A stretch of 64,000 nucleotides of DNA from Escherichia coli (lineage in GTDB: Bacteria; Pseudomonadota; Gammaproteobacteria; Enterobacterales; Enterobacteriaceae): assembly GCF_001677475.2 (NCBI RefSeq), contig NZ_CP015229.1, one strand, 5' to 3'. The translations under genes were made by a program, and so were the position numbers. Each line of letters opens with the position of its first letter. Positions within the stretch are counted from its first letter, which is position 1. Below, one piece after another: positions 1 through 54,710 of the stretch. The notes under the pieces are model-generated. The model saw only the letters and a program-made list of their open reading frames with translations, was not told the origin of the DNA and ran no database searches.

Positions 1-560
1 TGAACAGCCTGTGCCTGAGCCGGAGTTGCAGATTTGCCAGTACCGATTGCCCATACAGGTTCGTAAGCGATAACCGCACCTTCGAATGCCGCAGCACCCT
101 GAGTTTTCAGTACCGCGTCGATCTGACGTGCGCAAACTTCTTCAGTTTTTCCCGCTTCGTTTTCAGCTTCGGTTTCACCGATGCACAGAACCGGAGTCAG
201 ACCCTGCTCTTTCAGCACCGCGAATTTTTTCGCGATCAGTTCGTCAGACTCGTTGTGGTAAGTACGACGTTCAGAGTGGCCGATGATGATGTACTGTGCG
301 CCGATGTCTTTCAGCATAGCAGCAGAGGTTTCACCGGTGAATGCGCCGGACAGGTTCAGGTCCACGTTTTGCGCACCCAGCATGATGTGGCTGCCTTCAG
401 CTTCGCGCTTCGCCATATCGATGTACATTTCCGGTGGTGCGATTGCAACCGCACAGCCAGCAACACCTGCCAGCTCTTTACGCAGGTTAGAAACCAGCTC
501 GTGAACCATGTGGCGGCTGCCGTTCAGTTTCCAGTTACCCATCACTAAAGGATGTCGCAT
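1..560 (-). CDS. tpiA: Triosephosphate isomerase, N-terminal 186 codons; 3' end lies beyond window start
   Basis: Minus-strand ATG at 558-560 opens a frame translating [15 protein letters not shown]...IIGHSERR, recognised as E. coli TpiA; frame runs off the window edge. Confidence 0.9.
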
Positions 561-667
561 TTTAATTCTCCACGCTTATAAGCGAATAAAGGAAGATGGC
601 CGCCCCGCAGGGCAGCAGGTCTGTGAAACAGTATAGAGATTCATCGGCACAAAGGCTTTGCTTTTTG

Positions 668-1267
668 TCATTTATTCAAACCTTCAAGCGATTCAGATAG
701 CGCCAGCTTAATCGGTTCAACAGCGAAGGTCAGCCCCTTTTCGCCGTTGTCCGCGACAACATAACGCAGTGCACCTTCTGTCTCGGTGTAATAACGTTTG
801 TTTTTCCCCGCCGTTAGTAGCGACTGCAGTTTTTTCTGGCTTTGTGTTTTGGTCATTAATGGGGTGAGTGTGCGGATCACTGCTGCCATGTATTCCTGAG
901 CTTTCGCTTTCGCTGCTTTTTGCTCTGGCCCCTGGATGGGTAGCCAGGTCATTTGAATGCTTTTGATTTTTAAGGTACCGCGCTCCAGCGCAGTAGACGC
1001 ATACAAATTCTCGTTAATTTTACTTGCAGCACGAGTGAGATTGGCTTTGTCGGGACTGCTGTCGATGGCACGAAATTCGTTCAGTGGCAGGCTGGGATTC
1101 TGGCTGTTAAAGTCTTCTCGAAACTGGCTGATGGAGAGATCGAAAGTAGGGGCTCCAGCCAGCAGATAAGGCGCGGTCGTTGCCGTATCTGGTGTTTGTG
1201 CATGCGCCGTTGTTGTAACGGTTAATGCAGAACATAAGAGAAAAAACAGCGTACACCCTGGCTTCAT
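668..1267 (-). CDS. yiiQ: DUF1454 periplasmic protein YiiQ (199 aa) with signal peptide
   Basis: ORF track 199 aa; N-terminal hydrophobic signal (MKPGCTLFFLLCSALTVTTTAHA); position between tpiA and yiiR as in K-12. Confidence 0.85.
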   Translation of the reverse strand: MKPGCTLFFLLCSALTVTTTAHAQTPDTATTAPYLLAGAPTFDLSISQFREDFNSQNPSLPLNEFRAIDSSPDKANLTRAASKINENLYASTALERGTLKIKSIQMTWLPIQGPEQKAAKAKAQEYMAAVIRTLTPLMTKTQSQKKLQSLLTAGKNKRYYTETEGALRYVVADNGEKGLTFAVEPIKLALSESLEGLNK

Positions 1268-1367
1268 TGACAGTACCTTTTGTTATGACTGGCTCCGATT
1301 AAAACGATATCTGTCGCCCTTGTCAAAAGGGTAGAATCCTGGAAAAGACAACCATCAAGGAACTTAC

Positions 1368-1808
1368 ATGACCATACAGCAATGGTTATTCTCATTTAAA
1401 GGGCGTATTGGACGCCGTGATTTCTGGATTTGGATAGGCCTGTGGTTCGCAGGCATGCTGGTGCTTTTCTCACTGGCGGGTAAAAATTTACTCGATATTC
1501 AGACCGCGGCGTTTTGCCTTGTGTGCTTGCTTTGGCCAACAGCGGCAGTAACCGTTAAGCGCTTGCATGATCGCGGGCGTTCCGGCGCATGGGCATTTCT
1601 GATGATTGTGGCGTGGATGCTGCTGGCGGGTAACTGGGCGATTTTACCGGGTGTCTGGCAATGGGCGGTGGGGCGTTTTGTCCCGACGTTGATTCTGGTG
1701 ATGATGCTTATCGATCTTGGTGCGTTTGTTGGCACACAAGGCGAAAATAAATATGGTAAAGATACCCAGGATGTGAAGTATAAAGCCGACAATAAATCAA
1801 GTAATTAA
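1368..1808 (+). CDS. yiiR: DUF805 inner-membrane protein YiiR (146 aa)
   Basis: ORF 146 aa, hydrophobic segments, conserved synteny. Confidence 0.85.
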   Translation: MTIQQWLFSFKGRIGRRDFWIWIGLWFAGMLVLFSLAGKNLLDIQTAAFCLVCLLWPTAAVTVKRLHDRGRSGAWAFLMIVAWMLLAGNWAILPGVWQWAVGRFVPTLILVMMLIDLGAFVGTQGENKYGKDTQDVKYKADNKSSN

Positions 1809-2019
1809 CCTTTAATATATCTCTTACTGCTATTTTTTTCCGGGATTGTTATTTCCACGATGCAAATGACAATGCCCGGAAAATCCTTCTGAACTCTTCA
1901 CCTTAAGCAATATCAAAAAAAATGGTAATCCATAAGATCATTACTTGTTTGTTCTTCCCTTAACGGCGCATTATTCTTAAGTCGTAATCGACAGAGAGGC
2001 GAATATACAGAGGTGCCCT

Positions 2020-2319
2020 ATGAAAGATGTCGTAGATAAATGCAGTACTAAAGGATGTGCGATTGATATCGGTACGGTGATTGATAACGACAACTGTACC
2101 AGTAAGTTTTCGCGCTTTTTTGCCACCCGCGAAGAAGCAGAGTCCTTTATGACCAAACTGAAAGAGCTTGCCGCCGCTGCATCCTCTGCAGATGAAGGGG
2201 CCAGCGTGGCCTATAAGATTAAGGATCTGGAGGGGCAAGTTGAGCTTGATGCGGCCTTCACCTTCTCATGCCAGGCCGAGATGATTATTTTTGAGTTATC
2301 ACTGCGTTCGTTAGCTTGA
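2020..2319 (+). CDS. yiiS: UPF0381/DUF406 protein YiiS (99 aa)
   Basis: ORF 99 aa immediately upstream of uspD, matching K-12 synteny. Confidence 0.8.
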
Positions 2320-2345
2320 TGGAGTTGCTTTAGAAGGAGTTAAAC

Positions 2346-2774
2346 ATGGCTTATAAACACATTGGCGTGGCAATTTCCGGGAATGAAGAAGATGCCTTAC
2401 TGGTGAATAAAGCCCTGGAGCTCGCCAGACATAATGACGCTCACCTGACGTTAATTCATATTGATGATGGCTTAAGCGAGTTGTATCCGGGTATCTACTT
2501 CCCTGCAACAGAAGATATTCTTCAATTGTTGAAGAATAAGTCGGATAACAAGCTGTATAAACTGACGAAAAATATTCAATGGCCGAAGACAAAACTGCGT
2601 ATTGAACGCGGAGAAATGCCGGAAACACTGCTGGAAATTATGCAAAAAGAGCAGTGCGACCTCCTTGTCTGTGGTCATCATCACTCATTTATCAACCGTT
2701 TGATGCCGGCATATCGCGGGATGATCAATAAGTTGAGTGCGGATTTGCTCATCGTGCCGTTTATCGATAAGTAA
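2346..2774 (+). CDS. uspD: Universal stress protein D (142 aa)
   Basis: ORF 142 aa with UspA-like fold sequence; RBS GGAG upstream. Confidence 0.9.
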
Positions 2775-2778
2775 CCGC

Positions 2779-3525
2779 TTACCAGTAATGCTCCGCTGTC
2801 ATATGGCCCGGTCGGCGACGTAAATGTTTCGTCATCTGCCGGGTCTCTTTTAGCAACTGTTGTGTATCGCGCACCATCTGTGGATTGCCGCACAGCATCA
2901 CATGGCTGGTTTCTTTATTCATCGGCAGGCCAATCGCGCTTTCCAGTTCACCACTTTCAATTAACGCCGGTATCCGCCCGGTGAGTGATCCCGCCGCCGT
3001 TTCCCGACTGACCACCGTCTGAATGCGCAGTTTCCCTTCGTAGCGTTTTTCCAGTTCTTGCATCAGTGGCAAATAGCTTAAGTCGGCGGCATAACGTGCG
3101 GCGTGAACCAGGACCAGATTTTTGAAGCGATCTAAATCTTTGCCTAGTTGCAGAATCGATAAATAAGGGCCAATCGCTGTACCGGTTGCCAGCATCCATA
3201 GCGTTTCGCAATCTGGTACTTCCTCCAGAACAAAGAAACCAGCTGCTTCGCTAACTACCTGCACTTCATCGCCCGGTTTCAGTGCCGCCAGTCGTGGGCT
3301 TAATTTGCCATCGGGGACGGTGACCAGGTAAAACTCCAGATCGGGATTATCGGGCGAGTTAACATAGGAGTAGGCGCGCTGGACGCGTTCGCCGTCGATT
3401 TCAAGGCCAAGCTTGGTGAATTGCCCGGCGGTAAACGGAAGCACGGGGGCGTGAACGGTGAGACTAAACAGGGCGTCGGTCCAGTTCTGCACTTTAGTGA
3501 CTTTGCCTGTTACCCAATCAGCCAT
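2779..3525 (-). CDS. fpr: Ferredoxin/flavodoxin-NADP+ reductase (248 aa)
   Basis: ORF 248 aa, recognised as E. coli Fpr (MADWVTGKVTKVQNWTDALFSL...). Confidence 0.92.
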   Translation of the reverse strand: MADWVTGKVTKVQNWTDALFSLTVHAPVLPFTAGQFTKLGLEIDGERVQRAYSYVNSPDNPDLEFYLVTVPDGKLSPRLAALKPGDEVQVVSEAAGFFVLEEVPDCETLWMLATGTAIGPYLSILQLGKDLDRFKNLVLVHAARYAADLSYLPLMQELEKRYEGKLRIQTVVSRETAAGSLTGRIPALIESGELESAIGLPMNKETSHVMLCGNPQMVRDTQQLLKETRQMTKHLRRRPGHMTAEHYW

Positions 3526-3621: not shown

Positions 3622-4632
3622 TCAGAGGATGTGCACCTGCATTTCCGGGTCTTTGCGATCCAGATAGTGGATAGACTGAATGCGGCGAATGGTGCGTGAC
3701 TTGCCGCGGATCAGCAGAGTTTCGGTAGTCGCGATATTGCCTTTGCGGCTAATGCCTTCCAGCAGATCGCCTTTGGTAATACCGGTGGCAGAGAAGATGA
3801 CGTTATCGCTGCGCGCCATATCGCCCAGACGCAATACTTTACCGGCTTCGATGCCCATCGCTTTGCAGCGTGCCAGCTCCTGCTCGCCAATGCGACGATT
3901 CTCTTCGTTGTCGCCTTTGACGTCATGACGCGCCAGCAGACGACCATTCATGTCGCCATCTAATGCGCGGATCACCGCCGCAGAAACTACGCCTTCCGGC
4001 GCGCCACCAATACCGTACAGCACGTCAACTTCGCTGTCTGGCATACAGGTGAGAATTGAGGCCGCAACGTCGCCATCCGGAATAGCAAATACGCGTACGC
4101 CGAGTTGCTGCATTTCAGCGATAACGGCATCGTGGCGTGGTTTAGCCAGAATCGTTACCGTCAGTTCGCTCAACGGTTTGCCGAGCGCCGCCGCAACATT
4201 GCGCAGGTTATCCGCCAGCGGCAGGTTCAGATCAATGGTGCCTTTGGCTCCCGGCCCGACAATCAGCTTCTCCATATACATATCCGGCGCATTGAGGAAG
4301 CAGCCTTTATCGCCTACTGCCAGCACCGCCAGCGCGTTAGCCTGGCCCATCGCCGTCATGCGCGTGCCTTCAATCGGATCAACAGCAATATCTACCGCGT
4401 CGCCGCGACCAGTACCGACTTTTTCACCAATGTAGAGCATCGGTGCTTCGTCGATTTCACCTTCACCAATGACGATGGTGCCGTCAATGTTGACCTGGTT
4501 GAGCATAATACGCATGGCGTTTACCGCCGCGCCGTCCGCGGTGTTTTTATCGCCGCGTCCTAACCATTTGTAGCCAGCCAGCGCCGCTGATTCGGTGACG
4601 CGGGAAAATTCGATGGCAAGTTCTCGTCTCAT
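3622..4632 (-). CDS. glpX: Fructose-1,6-bisphosphatase class II (336 aa)
   Basis: ORF 336 aa recognised as GlpX; last gene of glpFKX operon. Confidence 0.92.
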   Translation of the reverse strand: MRRELAIEFSRVTESAALAGYKWLGRGDKNTADGAAVNAMRIMLNQVNIDGTIVIGEGEIDEAPMLYIGEKVGTGRGDAVDIAVDPIEGTRMTAMGQANALAVLAVGDKGCFLNAPDMYMEKLIVGPGAKGTIDLNLPLADNLRNVAAALGKPLSELTVTILAKPRHDAVIAEMQQLGVRVFAIPDGDVAASILTCMPDSEVDVLYGIGGAPEGVVSAAVIRALDGDMNGRLLARHDVKGDNEENRRIGEQELARCKAMGIEAGKVLRLGDMARSDNVIFSATGITKGDLLEGISRKGNIATTETLLIRGKSRTIRRIQSIHYLDRKDPEMQVHIL

Positions 4633-4767: not shown

Positions 4768-7144
<2,377 letters not shown>

Positions 7145-47914: not shown

Positions 47915-49288
47915 ATGGCACTTTGGGGCGGGCGTTTTACCCAGGCAGCAGATCAACGGTTCAAACAATTCAACGACTCACTGCGTTTTGATTACCGTCT
48001 GGCGGAGCAGGATATTGTTGGCTCTGTGGCCTGGTCCAAAGCCCTGGTAACGGTCGGTGTGCTGACCGCAGAAGAACAGGCGCAACTGGAAGAGGCGCTG
48101 AACGTGCTGCTGGAAGATGTTCGCGCCAGGCCACAACAAATCCTTGAAAGCGACGCCGAAGATATCCATAGCTGGGTGGAAGGCAAACTGATCGACAAAG
48201 TGGGTCAGTTAGGCAAAAAACTGCACACCGGGCGTAGCCGTAATGATCAGGTAGCGACTGACCTGAAACTGTGGTGCAAAGATACCGTTAGCGAGTTGCT
48301 GACGGCTAACCGGCAGCTGCAATCGGCGCTGGTGGAAACCGCACAAAACAATCAGGACGCGGTAATGCCAGGTTACACTCACCTGCAACGCGCCCAGCCG
48401 GTGACGTTCGCTCACTGGTGTCTGGCGTATGTTGAGATGCTGGCGCGCGATGAAAGCCGTTTGCAGGATGCGCTTAAGCGTCTGGATGTCAGCCCGCTAG
48501 GCTGTGGCGCGCTGGCGGGAACAGCCTATGAAATCGACCGTGAACAGTTAGCAGGCTGGCTGGGCTTTGCTTCGGCGACCCGTAACAGTCTCGACAGCGT
48601 TTCTGACCGTGACCACGTGCTGGAACTGCTTTCTGCTGCCGCTATCGGCATGGTGCATCTGTCGCGTTTTGCTGAAGACCTGATCTTCTTTAACACCGGC
48701 GAGGCGGGGTTTGTGGAGCTTTCTGACCGCGTGACTTCCGGTTCATCATTAATGCCGCAGAAGAAAAATCCGGATGCGCTGGAGCTGATTCGCGGTAAAT
48801 GCGGTCGGGTGCAGGGTGCGTTAACCGGCATGATGATGACGCTGAAAGGTTTGCCGCTGGCTTACAACAAAGATATGCAGGAAGACAAAGAAGGTCTGTT
48901 CGACGCGCTCGATACCTGGCTGGACTGCCTGCATATGGCGGCGCTGGTGCTGGACGGCATTCAGGTGAAACGTCCGCGTTGCCAGGAAGCGGCTCAGCAG
49001 GGTTACGCCAACGCCACTGAACTGGCGGATTACCTGGTGGCGAAAGGCGTACCGTTCCGCGAGGCGCACCATATTGTTGGTGAAGCGGTGGTGGAAGCCA
49101 TTCGTCAGGGCAAACCGCTGGAAGATCTGCCACTCAGTGAGTTGCAGAAATTCAGTCAGGTGATTGACGAAGATGTCTATCCGATTCTGTCGCTGCAATC
49201 GTGCCTCGACAAGCGTGCGGCAAAAGGCGGCGTCTCACCGCAGCAGGTGGCGCAGGCGATTGCTTTTGCGCAGGCGCGGTTGGGGTAA
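47915..49288 (+). CDS. argH: Argininosuccinate lyase (457 aa)
   Basis: [26 protein letters not shown]; fumarase/aspartase family signature [12 protein letters not shown]. Confidence 0.96.
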
Positions 49289-49312
49289 GAACATTTATAT
49301 GTACAAATTTGA

Positions 49313-49338
49313 GCCTGGCTTATCGCCGGGCTTTTTTA
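49313..49338 (+). terminator. Rho-independent terminator of argCBH
   Basis: gcctggc-ttatc-gccgggc hairpin followed by ttttttat. Confidence 0.7.
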
Positions 49339-49339
49339 T

Positions 49340-49459
49340 GGCAAAAAAAAGCGGATCCTGGAGATCCGCAAAAGTTCACGTTGGCTTTAGTTATTCGAGT
49401 TGAGAAACTCTCGAAACGGGCAGTGACTTCAAGGGTTAAAAGAGGTGCCGCTCCGTTTC
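49340..49459 (-). ncRNA. oxyS: OxyS small regulatory RNA (oxidative-stress sRNA)
   Basis: Minus-strand sequence GAAACGGAGCGGCACCUCUUUUAACCCUUGAAGUCACUGCCCGUUUCGAGAG...GCGGAUCUCCAGGAUCCGCUUUUUUUUGCC matches OxyS as recalled; terminal hairpin plus U8; divergent from oxyR. Confidence 0.9.
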
Positions 49460-49554
49460 TGTGAGCAATTATCAGTCAGAATGCTTGATAGGGATAATCG
49501 TTCGTTGCTATGCTACCTATCGCCGCGAACTATCGTGGCAATGGAGGATGGATA
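49460..49554. promoter_or_regulatory. oxyR-oxyS divergent promoter / OxyR binding region
   Basis: Intergenic region between oxyS 5' end and oxyR ATG; established OxyR autoregulatory site location; individual ATAG-type repeats not mapped here. Confidence 0.55.
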
Positions 49555-50472
49555 ATGAATATTCGTGATCTTGAGTACCTGGTGGCATTGGCCGAACACC
49601 GCCATTTTCGGCGTGCGGCAGATTCCTGCCACGTTAGCCAGCCGACGCTTAGCGGCCAAATTCGTAAGCTGGAAGATGAGCTGGGCGTGATGTTGCTGGA
49701 GCGGACCAGCCGTAAAGTGTTGTTCACCCAGGCGGGAATGCTGCTGGTGGATCAGGCGCGTACCGTGCTGCGTGAGGTGAAAGTCCTTAAAGAGATGGCA
49801 AGCCAGCAGGGCGAGACGATGTCCGGACCGCTGCATATTGGTTTGATTCCTACGGTTGGACCGTACCTGCTACCGCATATTATCCCGATGCTGCACCAGA
49901 CATTTCCAAAGCTGGAAATGTATCTGCATGAAGCACAGACCCACCAGTTACTGGCGCAACTGGACAGCGGCAAACTCGATTGCGTGATCCTCGCGCTGGT
50001 GAAAGAGAGCGAAGCATTCATTGAAGTGCCGTTGTTTGATGAGCCAATGTTGCTGGCTATCTATGAAGATCACCCGTGGGCGAACCGCGAATGCGTACCG
50101 ATGGCCGATCTGGCAGGGGAAAAACTGCTGATGCTGGAAGATGGTCACTGTTTGCGCGATCAGGCAATGGGTTTCTGTTTTGAAGCCGGGGCGGATGAAG
50201 ATACACACTTCCGCGCGACCAGCCTGGAGACGCTGCGCAACATGGTGGCGGCAGGTAGCGGGATCACTTTACTGCCAGCGCTGGCTGTGCCGCCGGAGCG
50301 CAAACGCGATGGGGTTGTTTATCTGCCGTGCATTAAGCCGGAACCACGCCGCACTATTGGCCTGGTTTATCGTCCTGGCTCACCGCTGCGCAGCCGCTAT
50401 GAGCAGCTGGCAGAGGCCATCCGCGCAAGAATGGATGGCCATTTCGATAAAGTGTTAAAACAGGCGGTTTAA
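49555..50472 (+). CDS. oxyR: LysR-family hydrogen-peroxide sensor/regulator OxyR (305 aa)
   Basis: [44 protein letters not shown]; Cys199/Cys208 region present (DGHCLRD ... FCFEAG). Confidence 0.96.
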
Positions 50473-51855
50473 ACCGTTTAACGCAGCTACCCGATAGGCT
50501 TCCGCCATGGTCGGGTAGTTAAAGGTGGTGTTGACGAAGTACTCAATAGTGTTGCCGCCACCTTTCTGTTCCATAATCGCCTGACCGATATGAATAATTT
50601 CGGCAGCGCGCTCGCCAAAGCAGTGAATACCCAGAATCTCTTTTGTTTCCCGATGGAACAAAATTTTCAGCGTGCCCACGTTCATGCCGACGATTTGTGC
50701 ACGTGCCAGATGTTTAAACTGGGCGCGGCCCACTTCATATGGCACTTTCATCGCGGTCAGCTGCTGTTCGGTTTTGCCCACAGAGCTGATTTCCGGGATG
50801 GTGTAAATGCCGGTAGGGATATCTTCAATCAGATGCGCGGTGGCTTCGCCTTTTACCAGCGCCTGCGCGGCAATGCGCCCCTGGTCATAGGCCGCTGATG
50901 CCAGGCTCGGATAACCAATCACGTCGCCCACCGCGTAAACGTGCGGCTGTGCGGTCTGATACATGCTGTTGACCTTCAGCTGTCCGCGACTGTCAGTTTC
51001 CAGCCCAATGTTCTGTAACGCCAGCGAATCGGTATTACCGGTACGACCGTTGGCATAGAGCAGGCAGTCAGCTTTCAGTTTTTTACCCGACTTCAGATGC
51101 ATGATCACACCGTCGTCACAGCCTTCGATCTTCTCGTACTCTTCGTTGTGACGAATCACTACGCCACTGTTCCAGAAGTGATAGGAGAGAGAATCTGACA
51201 TCTCTTGATCGAGAAATGCCAGCAGGCGATCGCGGGTGTTGATCAGATCCACTTTTACATCCATACCGCGGAAGATCGACGCATATTCACAGCCGATCAC
51301 TCCAGCACCATAGATAAGTACATGGCGCGGTTCGTGGTGCATGCTGAGAATTGAGTCGCTGTCGTAAATGCGTGGATGGGTGAAATCAACATCTGTTGGA
51401 TGATATGGACGAGAGCCGCAGGCAATAACAAATTTTTCAGCGGTTAGCGTTTCAACGCTGCCGTCCGGGCAATCCAGCGCCAACGTATGCTCGTCAACAA
51501 AGCGAGCGTTCCCCTGCAATATTTCACAGTGATTACGTTCGTAAAATCCCTGACGCATGCGCGTTTGTTGATTAATCACGTTATCGGCATGGTTAAGGAT
51601 ATCGGCAAAAGAAGAGCGGAGCAGTCGGGAATGGTCGCTGTATAGTGGGTTTTGATTGAATTCTATAATGCGGCTGACGGCGTGACGGAGAGCTTTCGAC
51701 GGGATGGTGCCCCAGTGGGTGCAACCGCCGCCAACATTTTGATAACGCTCGATAACTGCGACGCGCGCACCTTGCTTAACCAGGCCCATTGCAGCGCCTT
51801 CGCCGCCGGGGCCGGAACCTATTACTATGGCATCGTAATCGTAGGAATGTGGCAT
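50455..51855 (-). CDS. sthA: Soluble pyridine nucleotide transhydrogenase (466 aa)
   Basis: [28 protein letters not shown]-binding N-terminus; 3' end overlaps oxyR 3' end convergently by 18 nt. Confidence 0.95.
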
Positions 51856-52184
51856 GGTAGGGCTTACCTGTTCTTATACATAAAAGCAACAGAATGGTAA
51901 CATTTTATCGCGGGTAAGCCAATTGATCCCCGTCATTAATCTGGCTATAGCGTGAGCGGCCTTTGCTTTGTCTGCCCCCTTCTTAACCCATTTATTTACT
52001 ATTAATCGCTTTTTCTTATGGCTGATAGTTTTATCTTGCCGAAGCGTGCTTTTTTGTTATTGTCTTTATGAAATATTCTTATAAAACAAACATATAAATA
52101 TTTTATATTGATGAGTTATTTGTATTTATACCATCAATAAAATCCGTTAATTAGCCTGTTTATAAGTGAATAAAGGAATAGCCG

Positions 52185-53351
52185 ATGATCGAACACTATA
52201 TTCGAGGGTTTGAGGAAGAACTGCGTGAGATCCGCCATCAGATCCACGAAAACCCGGAGCTGGGATTACAAGAATTTAAAACCAGTGCTTTGGTGGCGGA
52301 AAAGCTGCGTCAGTGGGGCTATGAAGTAGAGCAAGGACTGGCGACGACGGGGATAGTGGCCACGTTAAAAGTGGGCGACGGAGAGAAAAGTATTGGCCTG
52401 CGGGCGGATATGGATGCGCTGCCAATTTATGAAAATAGTGGCAAGCCCTGGGCCAGTAAACATCCTGGTTTAATGCACGCCTGCGGGCATGACGGGCATA
52501 CCACCATACTGCTGGGGGCCGCGCGTTATTTTGCCGAAACCCGCCGTTTTAACGGCACGTTACGTCTTATCTTCCAGCCTGCGGAAGAGATGATTAACGG
52601 CGGTGAGATCATGGTTAAAGAGGGGCTTTTTGATCATTTCCCCTGCGATGTCATTTTCGGCATGCATAACATGCCCGGTCTGCCGGTGGGTAAGTTTTAT
52701 TTCCAGCCAGGGGAACTGATGGCGTCAATGGATCAGTTCCATATTACAGTTCGTGGTTGTGGCGGACACGGTGCGATCCCGCACAAAGCCATCGATCCGG
52801 TGCTGGTTGCCGCACATATCACCACCGCATTACAAAGCATTGTGTCGCGCAATGTCGATCCGCTGGAAGCGGCGGTAATTACCGTCGGCAGCATTGTTGC
52901 GGGTGAGGCGGCTAACGTCATTCCTGACAGTGCTGAGATGAAAATCAGCGTCCGCTCTCTTAGCCGCGATACCCGACAACTTCTTCTGACCCGTATTCCT
53001 GCTCTGGCACAAACCCAGGCTGCCAGCTTTGGTGCTACGGCTGAGGTTACGCATGTTAACGGTACACCGGTATTAGTGAATGACGAGGAGATGGCGCGCT
53101 TCGCCTGGCAGGTGGCGTGTAAAACGTTTGGTGAAGATCGGGCCGAGTTTGGCATCAAGCCCCTGATGGGCAGTGAGGATTTCTCTTTCATGCTGGAAGC
53201 CCAGCCGAAAGGCGCTTTTTTGCTGTTCGGTAATGGCGATGTCGGGGAAGGTTCCTGCATGGTGCATAACCCGGGTTACGACTTCAACGATGCAAGTCTG
53301 GTCCCGGCATGCAGCTACTGGGGCGCACTGGTAGAAGCTTGGCTGCAATAA
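52185..53351 (+). CDS. M20D-family amidohydrolase (hippurate hydrolase / N-acyl-amino-acid amidohydrolase-like), 388 aa; accessory gene not in K-12
   Basis: Metal-binding motifs typical of M20D enzymes (HACGHDGH, ...GEE...); GGAA RBS-like upstream; no paralogue recalled at this locus in K-12. Confidence 0.8.
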   Translation: MIEHYIRGFEEELREIRHQIHENPELGLQEFKTSALVAEKLRQWGYEVEQGLATTGIVATLKVGDGEKSIGLRADMDALPIYENSGKPWASKHPGLMHACGHDGHTTILLGAARYFAETRRFNGTLRLIFQPAEEMINGGEIMVKEGLFDHFPCDVIFGMHNMPGLPVGKFYFQPGELMASMDQFHITVRGCGGHGAIPHKAIDPVLVAAHITTALQSIVSRNVDPLEAAVITVGSIVAGEAANVIPDSAEMKISVRSLSRDTRQLLLTRIPALAQTQAASFGATAEVTHVNGTPVLVNDEEMARFAWQVACKTFGEDRAEFGIKPLMGSEDFSFMLEAQPKGAFLLFGNGDVGEGSCMVHNPGYDFNDASLVPACSYWGALVEAWLQ

Positions 53352-53393
53352 ATAAAACAACACACAACAACACTTTTTGGCAAGGAACATGGA

Positions 53394-54710
53394 ATGACGG
53401 CGATCGTAAATGAAACCGTGAGTGTGAAGAAAAAGCCCAGCGGTAAGCGGGTGATTTTTGCTTCGGCGTTTGGCAATGCGCTCGAATTTTTTGATTTTGG
53501 CGTTTACAACTTTTTTGTGGTCTATATCAGTACGCTTTTCTTCCCACCCAGCGCTGATCACAATGTCGCGCTGTTACTGGCATTTGCAACATTTGGCGTG
53601 AGTTTTTTTATGCGCCCGCTTGGTGGAATTATCGTCGGGGCCTGGGCCGATCGCTTCGGACGCAAACCCGCGATGGTGTTCACCATTGCCCTGATGAGCC
53701 TCGGTACACTGATGATCGGCATCGCACCGACGTATGAAACGGCGGGCTATTGGGGAACCGCGACGCTGGTGCTGGCGCGTCTAATTCAGGGCGTTGCGGC
53801 AGGAGGCGAAGTCGGTGCCTCAATGTCTTTGTTGGTTGAATCAGCTCCGGCAAATCGTCGCGGCTTTTACAGCAGTTGGTCACTGGCGACTCAAGGCCTG
53901 GCAACAACCTTTGGTGGTGTTGTCGCTTTAGGTTTAAGCGCATGGCTGCCCTTTGCGACAGGTTCAGAAACCGTAATGGCTGAATGGGGCTGGCGTGTGC
54001 CATTTTTTATTGGCGTGTTATTAGCACCTATCGGTTGCTGGTTGCGTCTGAGCCTGGAAAATGACGTACCTGAGCTAGTGCGCAATAAAAAAGCTGCTAC
54101 CAGCGAAAGCGCGTTCTCTCTGCTCCTGCAACATAAGGCGACTATCGTTAACGGCGTTTTACTCGCTATTGGTAGCACGGTCGCAACCTATATCTCCCTC
54201 TTTTATTACGGCACCTGGGCGGCGAAGTATCTGGCGATGCCTCAACATTATTCTCATGCAGCGATGTTACTGGCGGGCGTTATTACGTTTGTGGGTGCGC
54301 TGCTTGTGGGGATGTTGTGCGATTCGGTCGGGCGTAAAAAGCTGATTTTAATCTCCCGTGTGATGGTGCTGATCTGTAGCTGGCCGTCATTCTGGCTGTT
54401 GGTGAATTACCCAAGCCCTGGCATGTTGCTGACGGTGGTTTTCGTGATGGTCAGCTTTACCACGCTTGGCGGTGTGCCGGTAATGTTGCTGATCTCTGAA
54501 CTGTTGCCGAAACGGATTCGGGCATTGGGTTTTGCGCTGGTTTATAGCATTGGTGTGGCAATCTTTGGCGGTTTTGCTCAATATTTCGCTACGCAATCCA
54601 TCGTGTTGCTGGATAGTTTGACAGCTCCGGCGTGGTATTTGGGTGGAGGCACGTTGCTGTCGATGCTGGCGTTGTTGTACGTAAAAGAACCGGCCAAAGA
54701 ATTGCAGTAA
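53394..54710 (+). CDS. MFS transporter, metabolite:H+ symporter (MHS) family-like (438 aa); accessory gene not in K-12
   Basis: ~12 predicted hydrophobic helices; MFS loop motif [10 protein letters not shown]; MHS-like signatures [26 protein letters not shown] (compare ProP/KgtP/ShiA). Confidence 0.8.

Follow-up and report, generated by a model that had tools for sequence, protein, structure and literature searches.

How two transcription units that converge on each other bring their messages to an end, when not even their stop codons are separated, is the question raised by the junction of oxyR and sthA in Escherichia coli. In the window, the 64,000-nucleotide stretch of E. coli DNA that was analysed, oxyR lies on the plus strand and sthA on the minus strand, and a sequence-only reading had noted that their 3' ends overlap, that this leaves no room for terminators, and that each gene should be transcribed into the other, with possible mutual interference. 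Taken as a whole, the overlap is probably best explained as an ordinary, ancient tail-to-tail coding overlap that is no special device, and the arrangement is already known, being annotated in K-12 RefSeq and having its transcripts mapped. What is new here concerns a stem-loop of the sthA mRNA that lies inside oxyR, namely its conservation and its compensatory evolution, and two further conserved stems that lie in sthA past the oxyR stop codon; the position of the sthA 3' end itself has been published.

Geometry, conservation, and proposed origin of the overlap

The convergent 18-nt overlap is confirmed by the ORF table, the sequence, and the K-12 annotation, which agree with one another (Table 1). 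It had been described as comprising the last six codons of each gene; the 18 shared nucleotides stand, but they amount to five sense codons and a stop codon per gene. Read on the plus strand, TTAAAACAGGCGGTTTAA encodes L K Q A V followed by a stop, and on the minus strand L N R L F followed by a stop; the antiparallel codon register is exact, and the TAA of each gene faces a TTA leucine codon of the other. The same geometry is found in the K-12 RefSeq coordinates (oxyR 4158490-4159407 and sthA 4159390-4160790). The ORF called mechanically for oxyR begins at 49510; the true start codon is the ATG at 49555, and the sthA product is soluble pyridine nucleotide transhydrogenase (RefSeq annotation). 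Pfam matches to HTH_1 and LysR_substrate in OxyR, and to Pyr_redox_2 and Pyr_redox_dim in SthA, identify both proteins, and both protein tails fall outside these domain matches. Residues 87-305 of the OxyR regulatory domain match the E. coli OxyR PDB constructs 1I69/1I6A with few substitutions, these constructs extending to ...KVLKQAV305, and the alignment of SthA with a distant solved homologue (PDB 9N4Y) reaches the last residue, 466. Two bona fide protein-coding genes share their 3' ends, including the stop codons, and form a convergent overlapping pair; with both stop codons genuine, whether such an overlap might occur by chance is beside the point. An overlap of 18 nt in exact antiparallel register lies toward the longer end for convergent overlaps.

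Table 1. Genes, overlap, stem-loops, and transcript-end features at the oxyR-sthA junction (window coordinates)
Feature	Position	Strand	Remarks
oxyR	49555..50472	+	305 codons plus TAA; stop TAA at 50470-50472 (ORF table, sequence)
sthA	51855..50455	-	466 codons plus TAA; stop is the reverse complement of 50455-50457
18-nt convergent coding overlap TTAAAACAGGCGGTTTAA	50455..50472	both strands	OxyR L301-V305 plus stop opposite SthA L462-F466 plus stop
Hairpin A, GGCCAUCC-N10-GGAUGGCC	50415..50440	-	sthA 3' UTR stem-loop in oxyR codons 287-296; no U-tract
Published sthA mRNA 3' end	50410	-	PMC7815308 Supplementary file 1; coordinate transferred from K-12
Hairpin B, 11-bp stem, core CUACCCGA/UCGGGUAG	50485..50520	+	begins 13 nt after the oxyR stop; sthA codons 446-457
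Hairpin C, AAAGGUGG-N29-CCACCUUU	50521..50565	+	sthA codons 431-445
Rho-termination region peak, oxyR-sense, antisense to sthA	50574 (K-12 4159509)	+	Rho score 5.10, p = 3.2e-16; PMC7815308 Supplementary file 2
Rho-termination region peak, sthA-sense, antisense to oxyR	50080 (K-12 4159015)	-	Rho score 5.81, p = 5.9e-31; PMC7815308 Supplementary file 2
C-rich, G-poor tract, C/G ~2.3	50115..50194	- (sthA-sense RNA)	candidate rut; composition scan
C>G tract, C/G 1.3-1.6	50533..50692	+ (oxyR-sense RNA)	candidate rut; starts inside hairpin C and closely follows hairpin B; composition scan

The arrangement had also been called conserved in K-12. Conserved it is, but the window is not K-12; it belongs to another E. 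coli lineage (98.3-98.5% identity to K-12, plus a 2.7-kb insertion beside sthA), and the conservation spans most Enterobacterales. The locus was found in 5,425 of 5,426 complete E. coli genomes, and the oxyR and sthA orthologues are 91-100% identical across 80 species. Of 79 Enterobacteriaceae species, 77 have an overlap of 18 nt; in the other two, a change of the TAA to CAG moves the stop to the following in-frame TAG, and the overlap is 27 nt. An 18-nt overlap also occurs in Erwinia, Tatumella, Hafnia, Edwardsiella, Serratia, and Prodigiosinella. Closer relatives filled both the genome scan and the list of homologues, so that the outgroups all belong to Enterobacterales and the age of the overlap is bounded only within that order.

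The two protein tails are conserved to different degrees. The last 15 residues of SthA are invariant in six loci from other families, including that of Dickeya, and the last 10 are unchanged in 76 of 79 Enterobacteriaceae loci, while alignments with distant OxyR structures extend no further than about residue 291; synonymous diversity at oxyR codons 299-306 is 0.08 of that expected. The overlap may have arisen as a poorly conserved OxyR tail came to read into the antisense of the codons for a strongly constrained SthA C-terminus, the OxyR frame ending at a TAA that is the complement of the SthA Leu462 codon TTA, and the shared 18 nt would be held fixed mainly through selection on SthA. The exact overlap is dispensable, because the genes lie 116 nt apart in Dickeya, where the OxyR tail has drifted to SKQSA, and because the homologous OxyR frame overlaps sthA by only 9 nt in Pectobacterium. 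A 43-nt overlap called in Pectobacterium zantedeschiae was set aside, since it comes from a frame-shift in the gene call; 9 nt is the overlap in the homologous OxyR frame.

Transcript ends inside the partner gene

On neither strand did the consensus scan call an intrinsic terminator at the junction; the closest true ones belong to argH and oxyS, near 49311-49369, and the Rfam search at E <= 1 over 49200-52200 returned only OxyS (49350-49459, 139.5 bits) and one sub-threshold chance match. The 12-nt palindrome CGGTTTAAACCG, which spans the oxyR stop codon, was rejected as a terminator, as its stem of at most 4 bp gives no useful hairpin. The expectation that the overlap leaves no room for terminators holds for the intergenic space only, but the elements at the 3' ends are embedded in the coding sequence of the partner.

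Strand-specific mapping of 3' ends, which the sequence-only reading had proposed as a check on the junction, has already been published, and it places the sthA end inside oxyR: by Term-seq, the steady-state 3' end of the sthA mRNA lies at K-12 4159345 on the minus strand, 45 nt beyond the sthA stop codon (PMC7815308). This end is recorded in the sheets for two conditions, at mean read counts of 78,428 and 54,987, similar to the count for OxyS in the same table (PMC7815308). The coordinate was transferred from K-12 to the window through an ungapped alignment, in which the flanking sequence is identical except for one SNP at window position 50454, and only 63 nt of the mature sthA RNA lie opposite oxyR, reaching from 50410 to the last base of the oxyR stop codon at 50472. 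A plus-strand 3' end for oxyR is absent from the Term-seq table of PMC7815308, and the TERMITe supplements mention neither gene.

Bicyclomycin data reveal Rho-dependent termination in both directions, in each case within the opposing gene (PMC7815308); the peaks derive from 800-nt comparison windows, and their positions are imprecise. Base composition points to a candidate rut tract on each strand, the C-rich tract of the minus strand lying at +261 to +340, not directly downstream of the stem, and the C>G tract of the plus strand at +61 to +220. Transcription of each gene into the other, as had been expected, is borne out by published Term-seq and DirectRNA-seq data, which give the sthA end inside oxyR and the Rho regions in both opposing genes, and by the excludon listing discussed below. 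As no spacer separates the genes, each RNA polymerase runs into the other gene, as the published data show, and Rho-dependent termination in untranslated antisense RNA halts transcription, as the published bicyclomycin data show for both directions; the two mRNAs are therefore complementary to each other over at least 63 nt at their 3' ends. Non-canonical intrinsic termination or cleavage by an endonuclease could instead produce the sthA 3' end after hairpin A.

Stem-loops on either side of the junction

Hairpin A, found as an inverted repeat and by folding, has a GC-rich 8-bp stem of -15.1 kcal/mol, and the published Term-seq 3' end of sthA lies 5 nt downstream of it. None of the three hairpins is followed by the U-tract of an intrinsic terminator, the tails being UCUGCC (A), AAAGGU (B), and CUGUUC (C); for sthA, and for sthA only, a stem-loop without a U-tract coincides with a mapped end. 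Pairing in hairpin A is maintained at 97.3% in 80 species, with three of the eight pairs changed on both sides. Switches from A-U to G-C have occurred in at least three independent clades with only two uncompensated intermediates, and two of the compensations use OxyR replacements (Ile to Val and Ala to Thr) together with synonymous changes. The synonymous sites of the stem are frozen (A288 GCC in 71 of 71, I289 ATC in 63 of 64, and G295 GGC in 71 of 72), and the four-fold degenerate sites show a diversity of 0.00-0.03 against an expected 0.4-0.5, whereas the loop is hypervariable and the codons between the arms differ even in amino acid. Other families possess different but stable stems at this position, with z from -1.9 to -6.3.

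Shuffle-based significance is inflated, since related sequences share ancestry, and when the protein is held fixed in a codon-resampling null, hairpin A is marginally unusual (z = -1.9, p ~0.05). In the slide control, one shifted register (+1) equals the real structure in double-sided changes, with only 46% of its cells paired, and the G.U versus C.A asymmetry, used to judge which strand's RNA is under selection, gives equal counts for hairpin A on both strands. Most likely, hairpin A acts as a protective structure at the 3' end, as described for Rho-dependent transcripts, and would thereby contribute to the stability of the sthA mRNA.

On the oxyR-sense RNA, hairpin B folds with z = -4.07, remains unusual against the codon-resampling null (z = -4.1, p ~0.002), and ranks first in structure among 90 tiled windows antisense to sthA; it contains a rare Arg codon, CGG, that is retained in 78 of 79 species. 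Hairpin C is 99.8% paired on the plus strand in 80 species, its sole variable stem sites giving G.U on that strand, and the sites at which a transition breaks plus-strand pairing are frozen (T443 and T444 ACC in 79 of 79, and K431 AAA in 78 of 79). A G.U-rich stem related to hairpin C occurs in other families, and hairpin C alone is marginal (codon-null p = 0.065). Compensatory, double-sided changes were found in neither hairpin B nor hairpin C among the 80 species. Selection on the plus strand fits all five synonymous stem sites of hairpin C and four of the six in hairpin B, an asymmetry of G.U over C.A that may be read as suggestive only, since most sites can change in only one way, their partner being fixed by the amino acid. 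Several other families show only weak structure in the oxyR-sense RNA (z from -0.3 to -1.9). Amino-acid constraint and codon preference could explain part of the conservation of both hairpins, as sthA favours Asn, Tyr, and Thr codons that end in C along its whole length. When each gene was tiled and scored against a protein-preserving null, its antisense window with the strongest structure was the one adjoining the junction. The conserved stems in sthA codons 431-457 would probably do the same protective job for the oxyR-sense RNA.

These hairpins might also be functionless by-products of the encoded amino acids and codon bias, with the Term-seq end being a decay intermediate at a chance stem. 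When the hairpin A region is recoded synonymously, about 5% of the variants fold as well as the real one, hairpins B and C lack double-sided changes, sthA has strong codon preferences even away from the stems, at many of its Asn, Tyr, Ile, and Thr codons, and shared ancestry adds to the apparent significance. However, chance stems would account poorly for four-fold sites that are frozen next to varying loop codons, for A-U to G-C switches that recur across clades and are twice compensated at the cost of an OxyR residue, for the persistence of CGG in hairpin B, for different stems at the same site in other families, and for the placement of the top structured windows of both genes beside the junction, and the by-product explanation is unlikely. 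The sharp, abundant end 5 nt past a GC-rich 8-bp stem would also be expected if hairpin A were a non-canonical Rho-independent terminator of sthA, which ends transcription directly rather than limiting trimming after Rho. Yet the sequence after the stem, UCUGCCAGC, holds no U-tract, the consensus scan makes no call, a bicyclomycin-sensitive region lies downstream on the same strand, and the published class of Rho-dependent ends (PMC6061677) has exactly such anatomy; direct termination at hairpin A is decidedly unlikely, and protection of an end generated through Rho remains the preferred reading.

Regulatory readings and comparison with known systems

The pair is among the 165 convergent excludons of MG1655 identified with ExcludonFinder (PMC12288877), and a regulatory excludon would couple the expression of OxyR and SthA reciprocally through RNA polymerase collision and/or cleavage of the RNA duplex by RNase III. 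RNA-seq classes the pair as a convergent excludon in no fewer than half of 58 MG1655 transcriptomes (PMC12288877), transcripts from both directions enter the partner gene, adjacency and overlap are kept across Enterobacterales, and both genes concern redox balance, OxyR as a peroxide regulator and SthA as an NADPH-consuming enzyme. The listing, however, is automatic for any pair with overlapping coding sequences, no experiment on the oxyR-sthA pair was found in the literature searched, most sthA RNA stops just 45 nt beyond its stop codon, and the Dickeya gap and the short Pectobacterium overlap speak for a dispensable overlap. Moreover, oxyR transcription is weak and roughly constitutive and OxyR is activated post-translationally; therefore, interference would not track peroxide stress. 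Reciprocal control of this kind is highly improbable, and the mutual transcriptional interference raised by the sequence-only reading is plausible, though it finds no support in the evidence gathered. A joint reading would hold that oxyR codons 287-296 are selected mainly for the sthA stem-loop, with OxyR Ile289Val, Ala288Thr, and Asp294Asn fixed alongside pairing-restoring changes, that sthA codons 431-457 reciprocally host oxyR-sense stems, that the arrangement has been kept for hundreds of millions of years, and that the complementary ends could couple the levels of a redox regulator and an enzyme; this is a tentative proposal, and a somewhat doubtful one.

The overlap itself, to return to the ordinary tail-to-tail reading, matters little: E. 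coli has dozens of convergent coding overlaps, and one study counted 75 convergent pairs among its 663 overlapping pairs (PMC4161906). Its modest value lies in offering a clean, well-conserved case of how converging units are ended without a spacer, through Rho and stem-loops hidden in the partner genes. It also calls for caution in engineering: C-terminal tags on OxyR, deletions, and 'silent' recoding of codons 287-305 alter the SthA C-terminus or the 3' end of the sthA mRNA, and edits to sthA codons 431-466 likewise affect oxyR.

Like other convergent overlapping pairs of bacteria, oxyR and sthA are two real genes on opposite strands that share their 3' ends; the overlap would have originated by movement of a stop codon, and it is more conserved than its surroundings. 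The pair is unusually old, being present in several Enterobacterales families, and otherwise differs in nothing essential. With the convergent excludons it has in common the overlapping transcripts of neighbouring opposite-strand genes, but it is placed among them by a transcript overlap that follows trivially from the coding overlap, whereas their hallmark is mutually exclusive expression by interference or RNase III.

[quoted passage not shown] With this class sthA shares the GC-rich stem-loop without a U-run, the precise end a few nucleotides downstream, and the bicyclomycin-sensitive read-through, and its C-rich tract further downstream is a candidate for the rut region; it differs in that its stem-loop lies wholly inside the coding sequence of another gene and co-evolves with the codons of that gene. 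Bidirectional intrinsic terminators, which SEnd-seq work has reportedly placed between convergent genes, are another way to end two converging units where there is very little room. Those terminators use one GC-rich hairpin, with an A-tract before it and a U-tract after it, for both directions; the oxyR-sthA junction has instead separate hairpins on each side, together with Rho.

Geometry of the oxyR–sthA overlap

The plus-strand oxyR gene and the minus-strand sthA gene converge and have their last 18 nt in common (TTAAAACAGGCGGTTTAA, 50455–50472), as the sequence-only reading had claimed and as the sequence and the mechanical ORF table bear out; the six codons that it counted as shared are actually five sense codons and a stop. 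TTAAAACAGGCGGTTTAA encodes L-K-Q-A-V-stop forward (oxyR) and L-N-R-L-F-stop in reverse (sthA), and the two frames lie in exact antiparallel codon register, so that each TAA faces a TTA leucine codon of the partner. Both genes are genuine: OxyR matches the Pfam families HTH_1 and LysR_substrate, SthA matches Pyr_redox_2, Pyr_redox, and Pyr_redox_dim, and the E. coli OxyR crystal constructs 1I69 and 1I6A reach ...KVLKQAV305. The mechanical oxyR ORF is longer, starting at 49510 rather than at the real ATG. The arrangement had been called conserved in K-12, and the identical geometry is indeed annotated in K-12 RefSeq (oxyR 4158490–4159407, sthA 4159390–4160790), although the window itself is not K-12: it aligns with MG1655 without gaps at 98.3–98.5% identity and carries 2.7 kb of additional sequence in the sthA–fabR interval.

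A second in-frame oxyR stop, the TAA at 50479–50481, lies 9 nt past the first and opposite SthA Leu459, because the SthA codons repeat (TTA-AAC-GGT-TTA-AAC, LNGLN). The same codon repeat also produces a perfect 12-nt palindrome, CGGTTTAAACCG (50465–50476), across the oxyR stop codon, which at that length cannot fold into a stable hairpin.

Features of the oxyR–sthA junction (window positions; Rho-termination peaks from PMC7815308)
Feature	Position	Strand	Description
oxyR	start ATG 49555, stop TAA 50470–50472	+	305 residues, N-terminus MNIRDLEYL; from sequence and mechanical ORF table
sthA	51855 to 50455	-	466 residues; TAA is the reverse complement of 50455–50457
Hairpin A	50415–50422 pairing with 50433–50440	- (sthA-sense)	GGCCAUCC-N10-GGAUGGCC
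Hairpin B	50485–50520	+ (oxyR-sense)	downstream of oxyR stop; within sthA codons 431–457 (shared with C)
Hairpin C	50521–50565	+ (oxyR-sense)	downstream of oxyR stop; within sthA codons 431–457 (shared with B)
Rho-termination peak	50574 (K-12 4159509)	+	antisense to sthA; Rho score 5.10, p = 3.2e-16
Rho-termination peak	50080 (K-12 4159015)	-	antisense to oxyR; Rho score 5.81, p = 5.9e-31

Distribution of the overlap and constraint on its genes

Convergent overlap is ordinary as a class, with 75 convergent cases among the 663 overlapping adjacent pairs in a survey of E. coli (PMC4161906). The oxyR–sthA locus occurs in 5,425 of 5,426 complete E. coli genomes, and a SthA-query scan of species-representative genomes gave 80 Enterobacteriaceae loci, 79 of which contain oxyR. 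Of these 79, 77 have an overlap of exactly 18 nt. In the other two, Enterobacter soli and Pluralibacter gergoviae, CAG replaces the oxyR TAA and the overlap grows to 27 nt, the frame ending at the next in-frame TAG, opposite SthA Leu459. The same 18-nt overlap is present in the contexts fetched from other Enterobacterales families for Erwinia, Tatumella, Hafnia, Edwardsiella, Serratia, and Prodigiosinella, and the Pectobacteriaceae (Dickeya, Pectobacterium) deviate from it. In Dickeya dianthicola, the genes are separated by a 116-nt AT-rich spacer (3908–4023 of locus L084), in which an 18-nt unit is tandemly repeated 3.3–3.6 times and the motif GTCGGCTTAA is duplicated; this suggests that an insertion split an ancestral overlap. 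In the homologous frame, which ends MENLSK-stop, oxyR of Pectobacterium zantedeschiae overlaps sthA by 9 nt; the 43-nt overlap of the gene call (3365–3407 of L089) was rejected as a frame-shift artefact, since the C-terminus of that 314-residue OxyR is in a non-homologous frame. The frame switch may be a genuine frameshift or may come from an error in the assembly.

Of the 79 Enterobacteriaceae loci, 76 share the same last 10 SthA residues, and the last 15 are identical across six other-family loci compared, including Dickeya, whose sthA end carries synonymous DNA changes (CGG TTA TTT TGA) that leave the SthA C-terminus as it was; one of the 15 is different in Prodigiosinella (EAFRV…). The distant solved SthA homologue 9N4Y aligns up to residue 466. 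OxyR LKQAV is kept only where it overlaps sthA (Dickeya OxyR ends SKQSA), the approximately 12 residues upstream of it are hypervariable between families, alignments with distant OxyR structures stop near residue 291, and the LysR_substrate match at residue 293. Synonymous diversity relative to expectation is 0.08 in oxyR codons 299–306 and 0.40 in sthA codons 461–467, in agreement with strong dual constraint. The overlap probably originated through extension of the OxyR frame into the antisense of the constrained sthA 3' end, and would since then have been maintained mainly via selection on SthA.

The insertion relative to K-12 (51975–54675) carries genes for an M20 aminoacylase (52185–53351) and an MFS transporter (53394–54710), annotated elsewhere as a citrate–proton symporter. 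Of the 5,426 complete E. coli genomes, 1,507 have this insertion, none with an identity above 97.3%; the lineage of the window is therefore not closely represented among them. In E. coli strain 600468, argH and oxyR are separated by manD and an MFS transporter gene (540–3104 of locus L002), which makes the region upstream of oxyR an accessory-gene insertion site as well. Outside Enterobacteriaceae (L083 and L085–L088, ~4930–5700), the gene divergent from oxyR encodes a peroxiredoxin–glutaredoxin hybrid with AhpC-TSA and Glutaredoxin domains, in place of which E. coli has the oxyS/argH arrangement.

Transcript ends and embedded stem-loops

No canonical intrinsic terminator was found at the junction, consistent with the earlier claim of no terminator between the genes, the nearest being those of argH and oxyS (~49311–49369). 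The strand-specific 3'-end mapping that was to check this claim is already published: in Supplementary file 1 of Adams et al. 2021 (PMC7815308), K-12 4159345 (-) is given as a Term-seq 3' end, classed as 'primary' for sthA and antisense to oxyR, with average read counts of 78,428 (LB OD 0.4 sheet) and 54,987 (assigned to the LB OD 2.0 sheet by position in the file). This end corresponds to 50410, 45 nt beyond the sthA stop, and demonstrates that the sthA RNA ends inside oxyR after hairpin A, a stem-loop in sthA-sense RNA within oxyR codons 287–296; a mapped oxyR 3' end was not found in the Term-seq table. Supplementary file 2, DirectRNA-seq with and without bicyclomycin, places two Rho-termination regions at the junction, showing that Rho limits read-through both ways, and ExcludonFinder (PMC12288877) includes oxyR–sthA in its list of 165 convergent excludons, found in half or more of the 58 MG1655 transcriptomes. 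Together, these data establish the convergent transcription of each gene into the other that the sequence-only reading had proposed. On both strands, a composition scan finds C-rich, G-poor tracts beyond the hairpins, either upstream of the Rho peaks or around them. The OxyS sRNA gene (49350–49459, -; Rfam RF00035, 139.5 bits) is divergent from oxyR, and its terminator (49369–49351, -) lies back-to-back with that of argH (49311–49333, +); sthA-sense read-through escaping Rho would run into the OxyS terminator.

Within 110 nt of the junction there are three perfect inverted repeats of 8 nt. Hairpin A ends 5 nt ahead of the published sthA 3' end and is without a U-tract, the anatomy described for steady-state ends of Rho-dependent transcripts by Dar & Sorek (PMC6061677). 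Its arms are near-invariant in 80 sequences, and its 10-nt loop (oxyR codons 290–292) varies even in amino acid. The stem codons are almost without synonymous variation (A288 GCC 71/71, I289 ATC 63/64, G295 GGC 71/72), against an expected diversity of 0.4–0.5. Both-sided changes occur in three of eight pairs, A-U to G-C (10 sequences), G-C to A-U (2), and C-G to U-A (1), and these 13 cells are matched by 0 of 500 shuffles; one shifted register in a slide control equals the real structure in double-sided changes. The gene-body tree gives the A-U to G-C switch three or more origins (Kluyvera; Cedecea colo with Dryocola and one related isolate; Intestinirhabdus), and two species have uncompensated A.C intermediates. 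In several compensations, an OxyR replacement (Ile to Val, Ala to Thr, Asp to Asn) is accompanied by a synonymous change in the opposite arm. At the same site, stable stems that differ from it occur in other families (z -1.9 to -6.3), such as GCUCGCGGA/UCCGCGAGC in Hafnia and Edwardsiella. Under a codon null, hairpins A and C are each marginal alone (p about 0.05–0.07). The most structured antisense window of oxyR, among 57 tiled under a protein-preserving null, is the 45-nt window from 50380, beside the junction. Directly downstream of the sthA 3' end, an 8-bp stem, CAGCUGCU-CAU-AGCGGCUG (50384–50404, -), is conserved across families together with the S-R-Y-E-Q-L amino acids of its oxyR codons.

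Hairpins B and C are stems in oxyR-sense RNA inside sthA. Hairpin B is strongly unusual (z = -4.1) against both dinucleotide shuffles and a SthA-preserving codon-resampling null, and its rare CGG codon is kept in 78 of 79 species. In hairpin C, 99.8% of cells are paired on the plus strand, variable sites yield only G.U there, and sites whose transition breaks plus-strand pairing are frozen. Neither hairpin has compensatory change among the aligned Enterobacteriaceae sequences, part of the low diversity in sthA is attributable to codon preference, and several other families show only weak oxyR-sense structure. The most structured antisense window of sthA (50488; 90 tiled, protein-preserving null) also lies beside the junction.

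Possible interference, proposed 3' UTR hosting, and known systems

The complementary oxyR and sthA 3' regions span at least 63 nt (50410–50472), and up to ~165 nt if the oxyR RNA reaches 50574. Regulatory interference of importance, which the sequence-only reading had raised as a possibility, is improbable, as excludon status is automatic for this pair, most sthA RNA ends after 45 nt, and the junction is altered in two genera. As to the stems themselves, hairpin A is most likely under selection as a 3'-end protective structure within the partner's coding sequence, and hairpins B and C probably are as well. It is put forward more tentatively that each gene hosts the 3' UTR structures of the other, and that OxyR residues have co-evolved so as to preserve the sthA RNA stem.

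Prior work already covers the overlap and its annotation, as well as the transcripts that overlap and the 3' ends; what is new is a small detail, namely that the embedded hairpin is conserved and has evolved by compensatory change. No Rfam family matches the junction. The genes show every defining feature tested of a convergent overlapping gene pair, and published data show the transcript overlap of an excludon, a class of opposite-strand neighbors whose functional hallmark is mutually exclusive expression. The junction differs from an intrinsic or bidirectional terminator, for which it was tested, and matches, on the checkable features, a Rho-dependent 3' end with a protective stem-loop.
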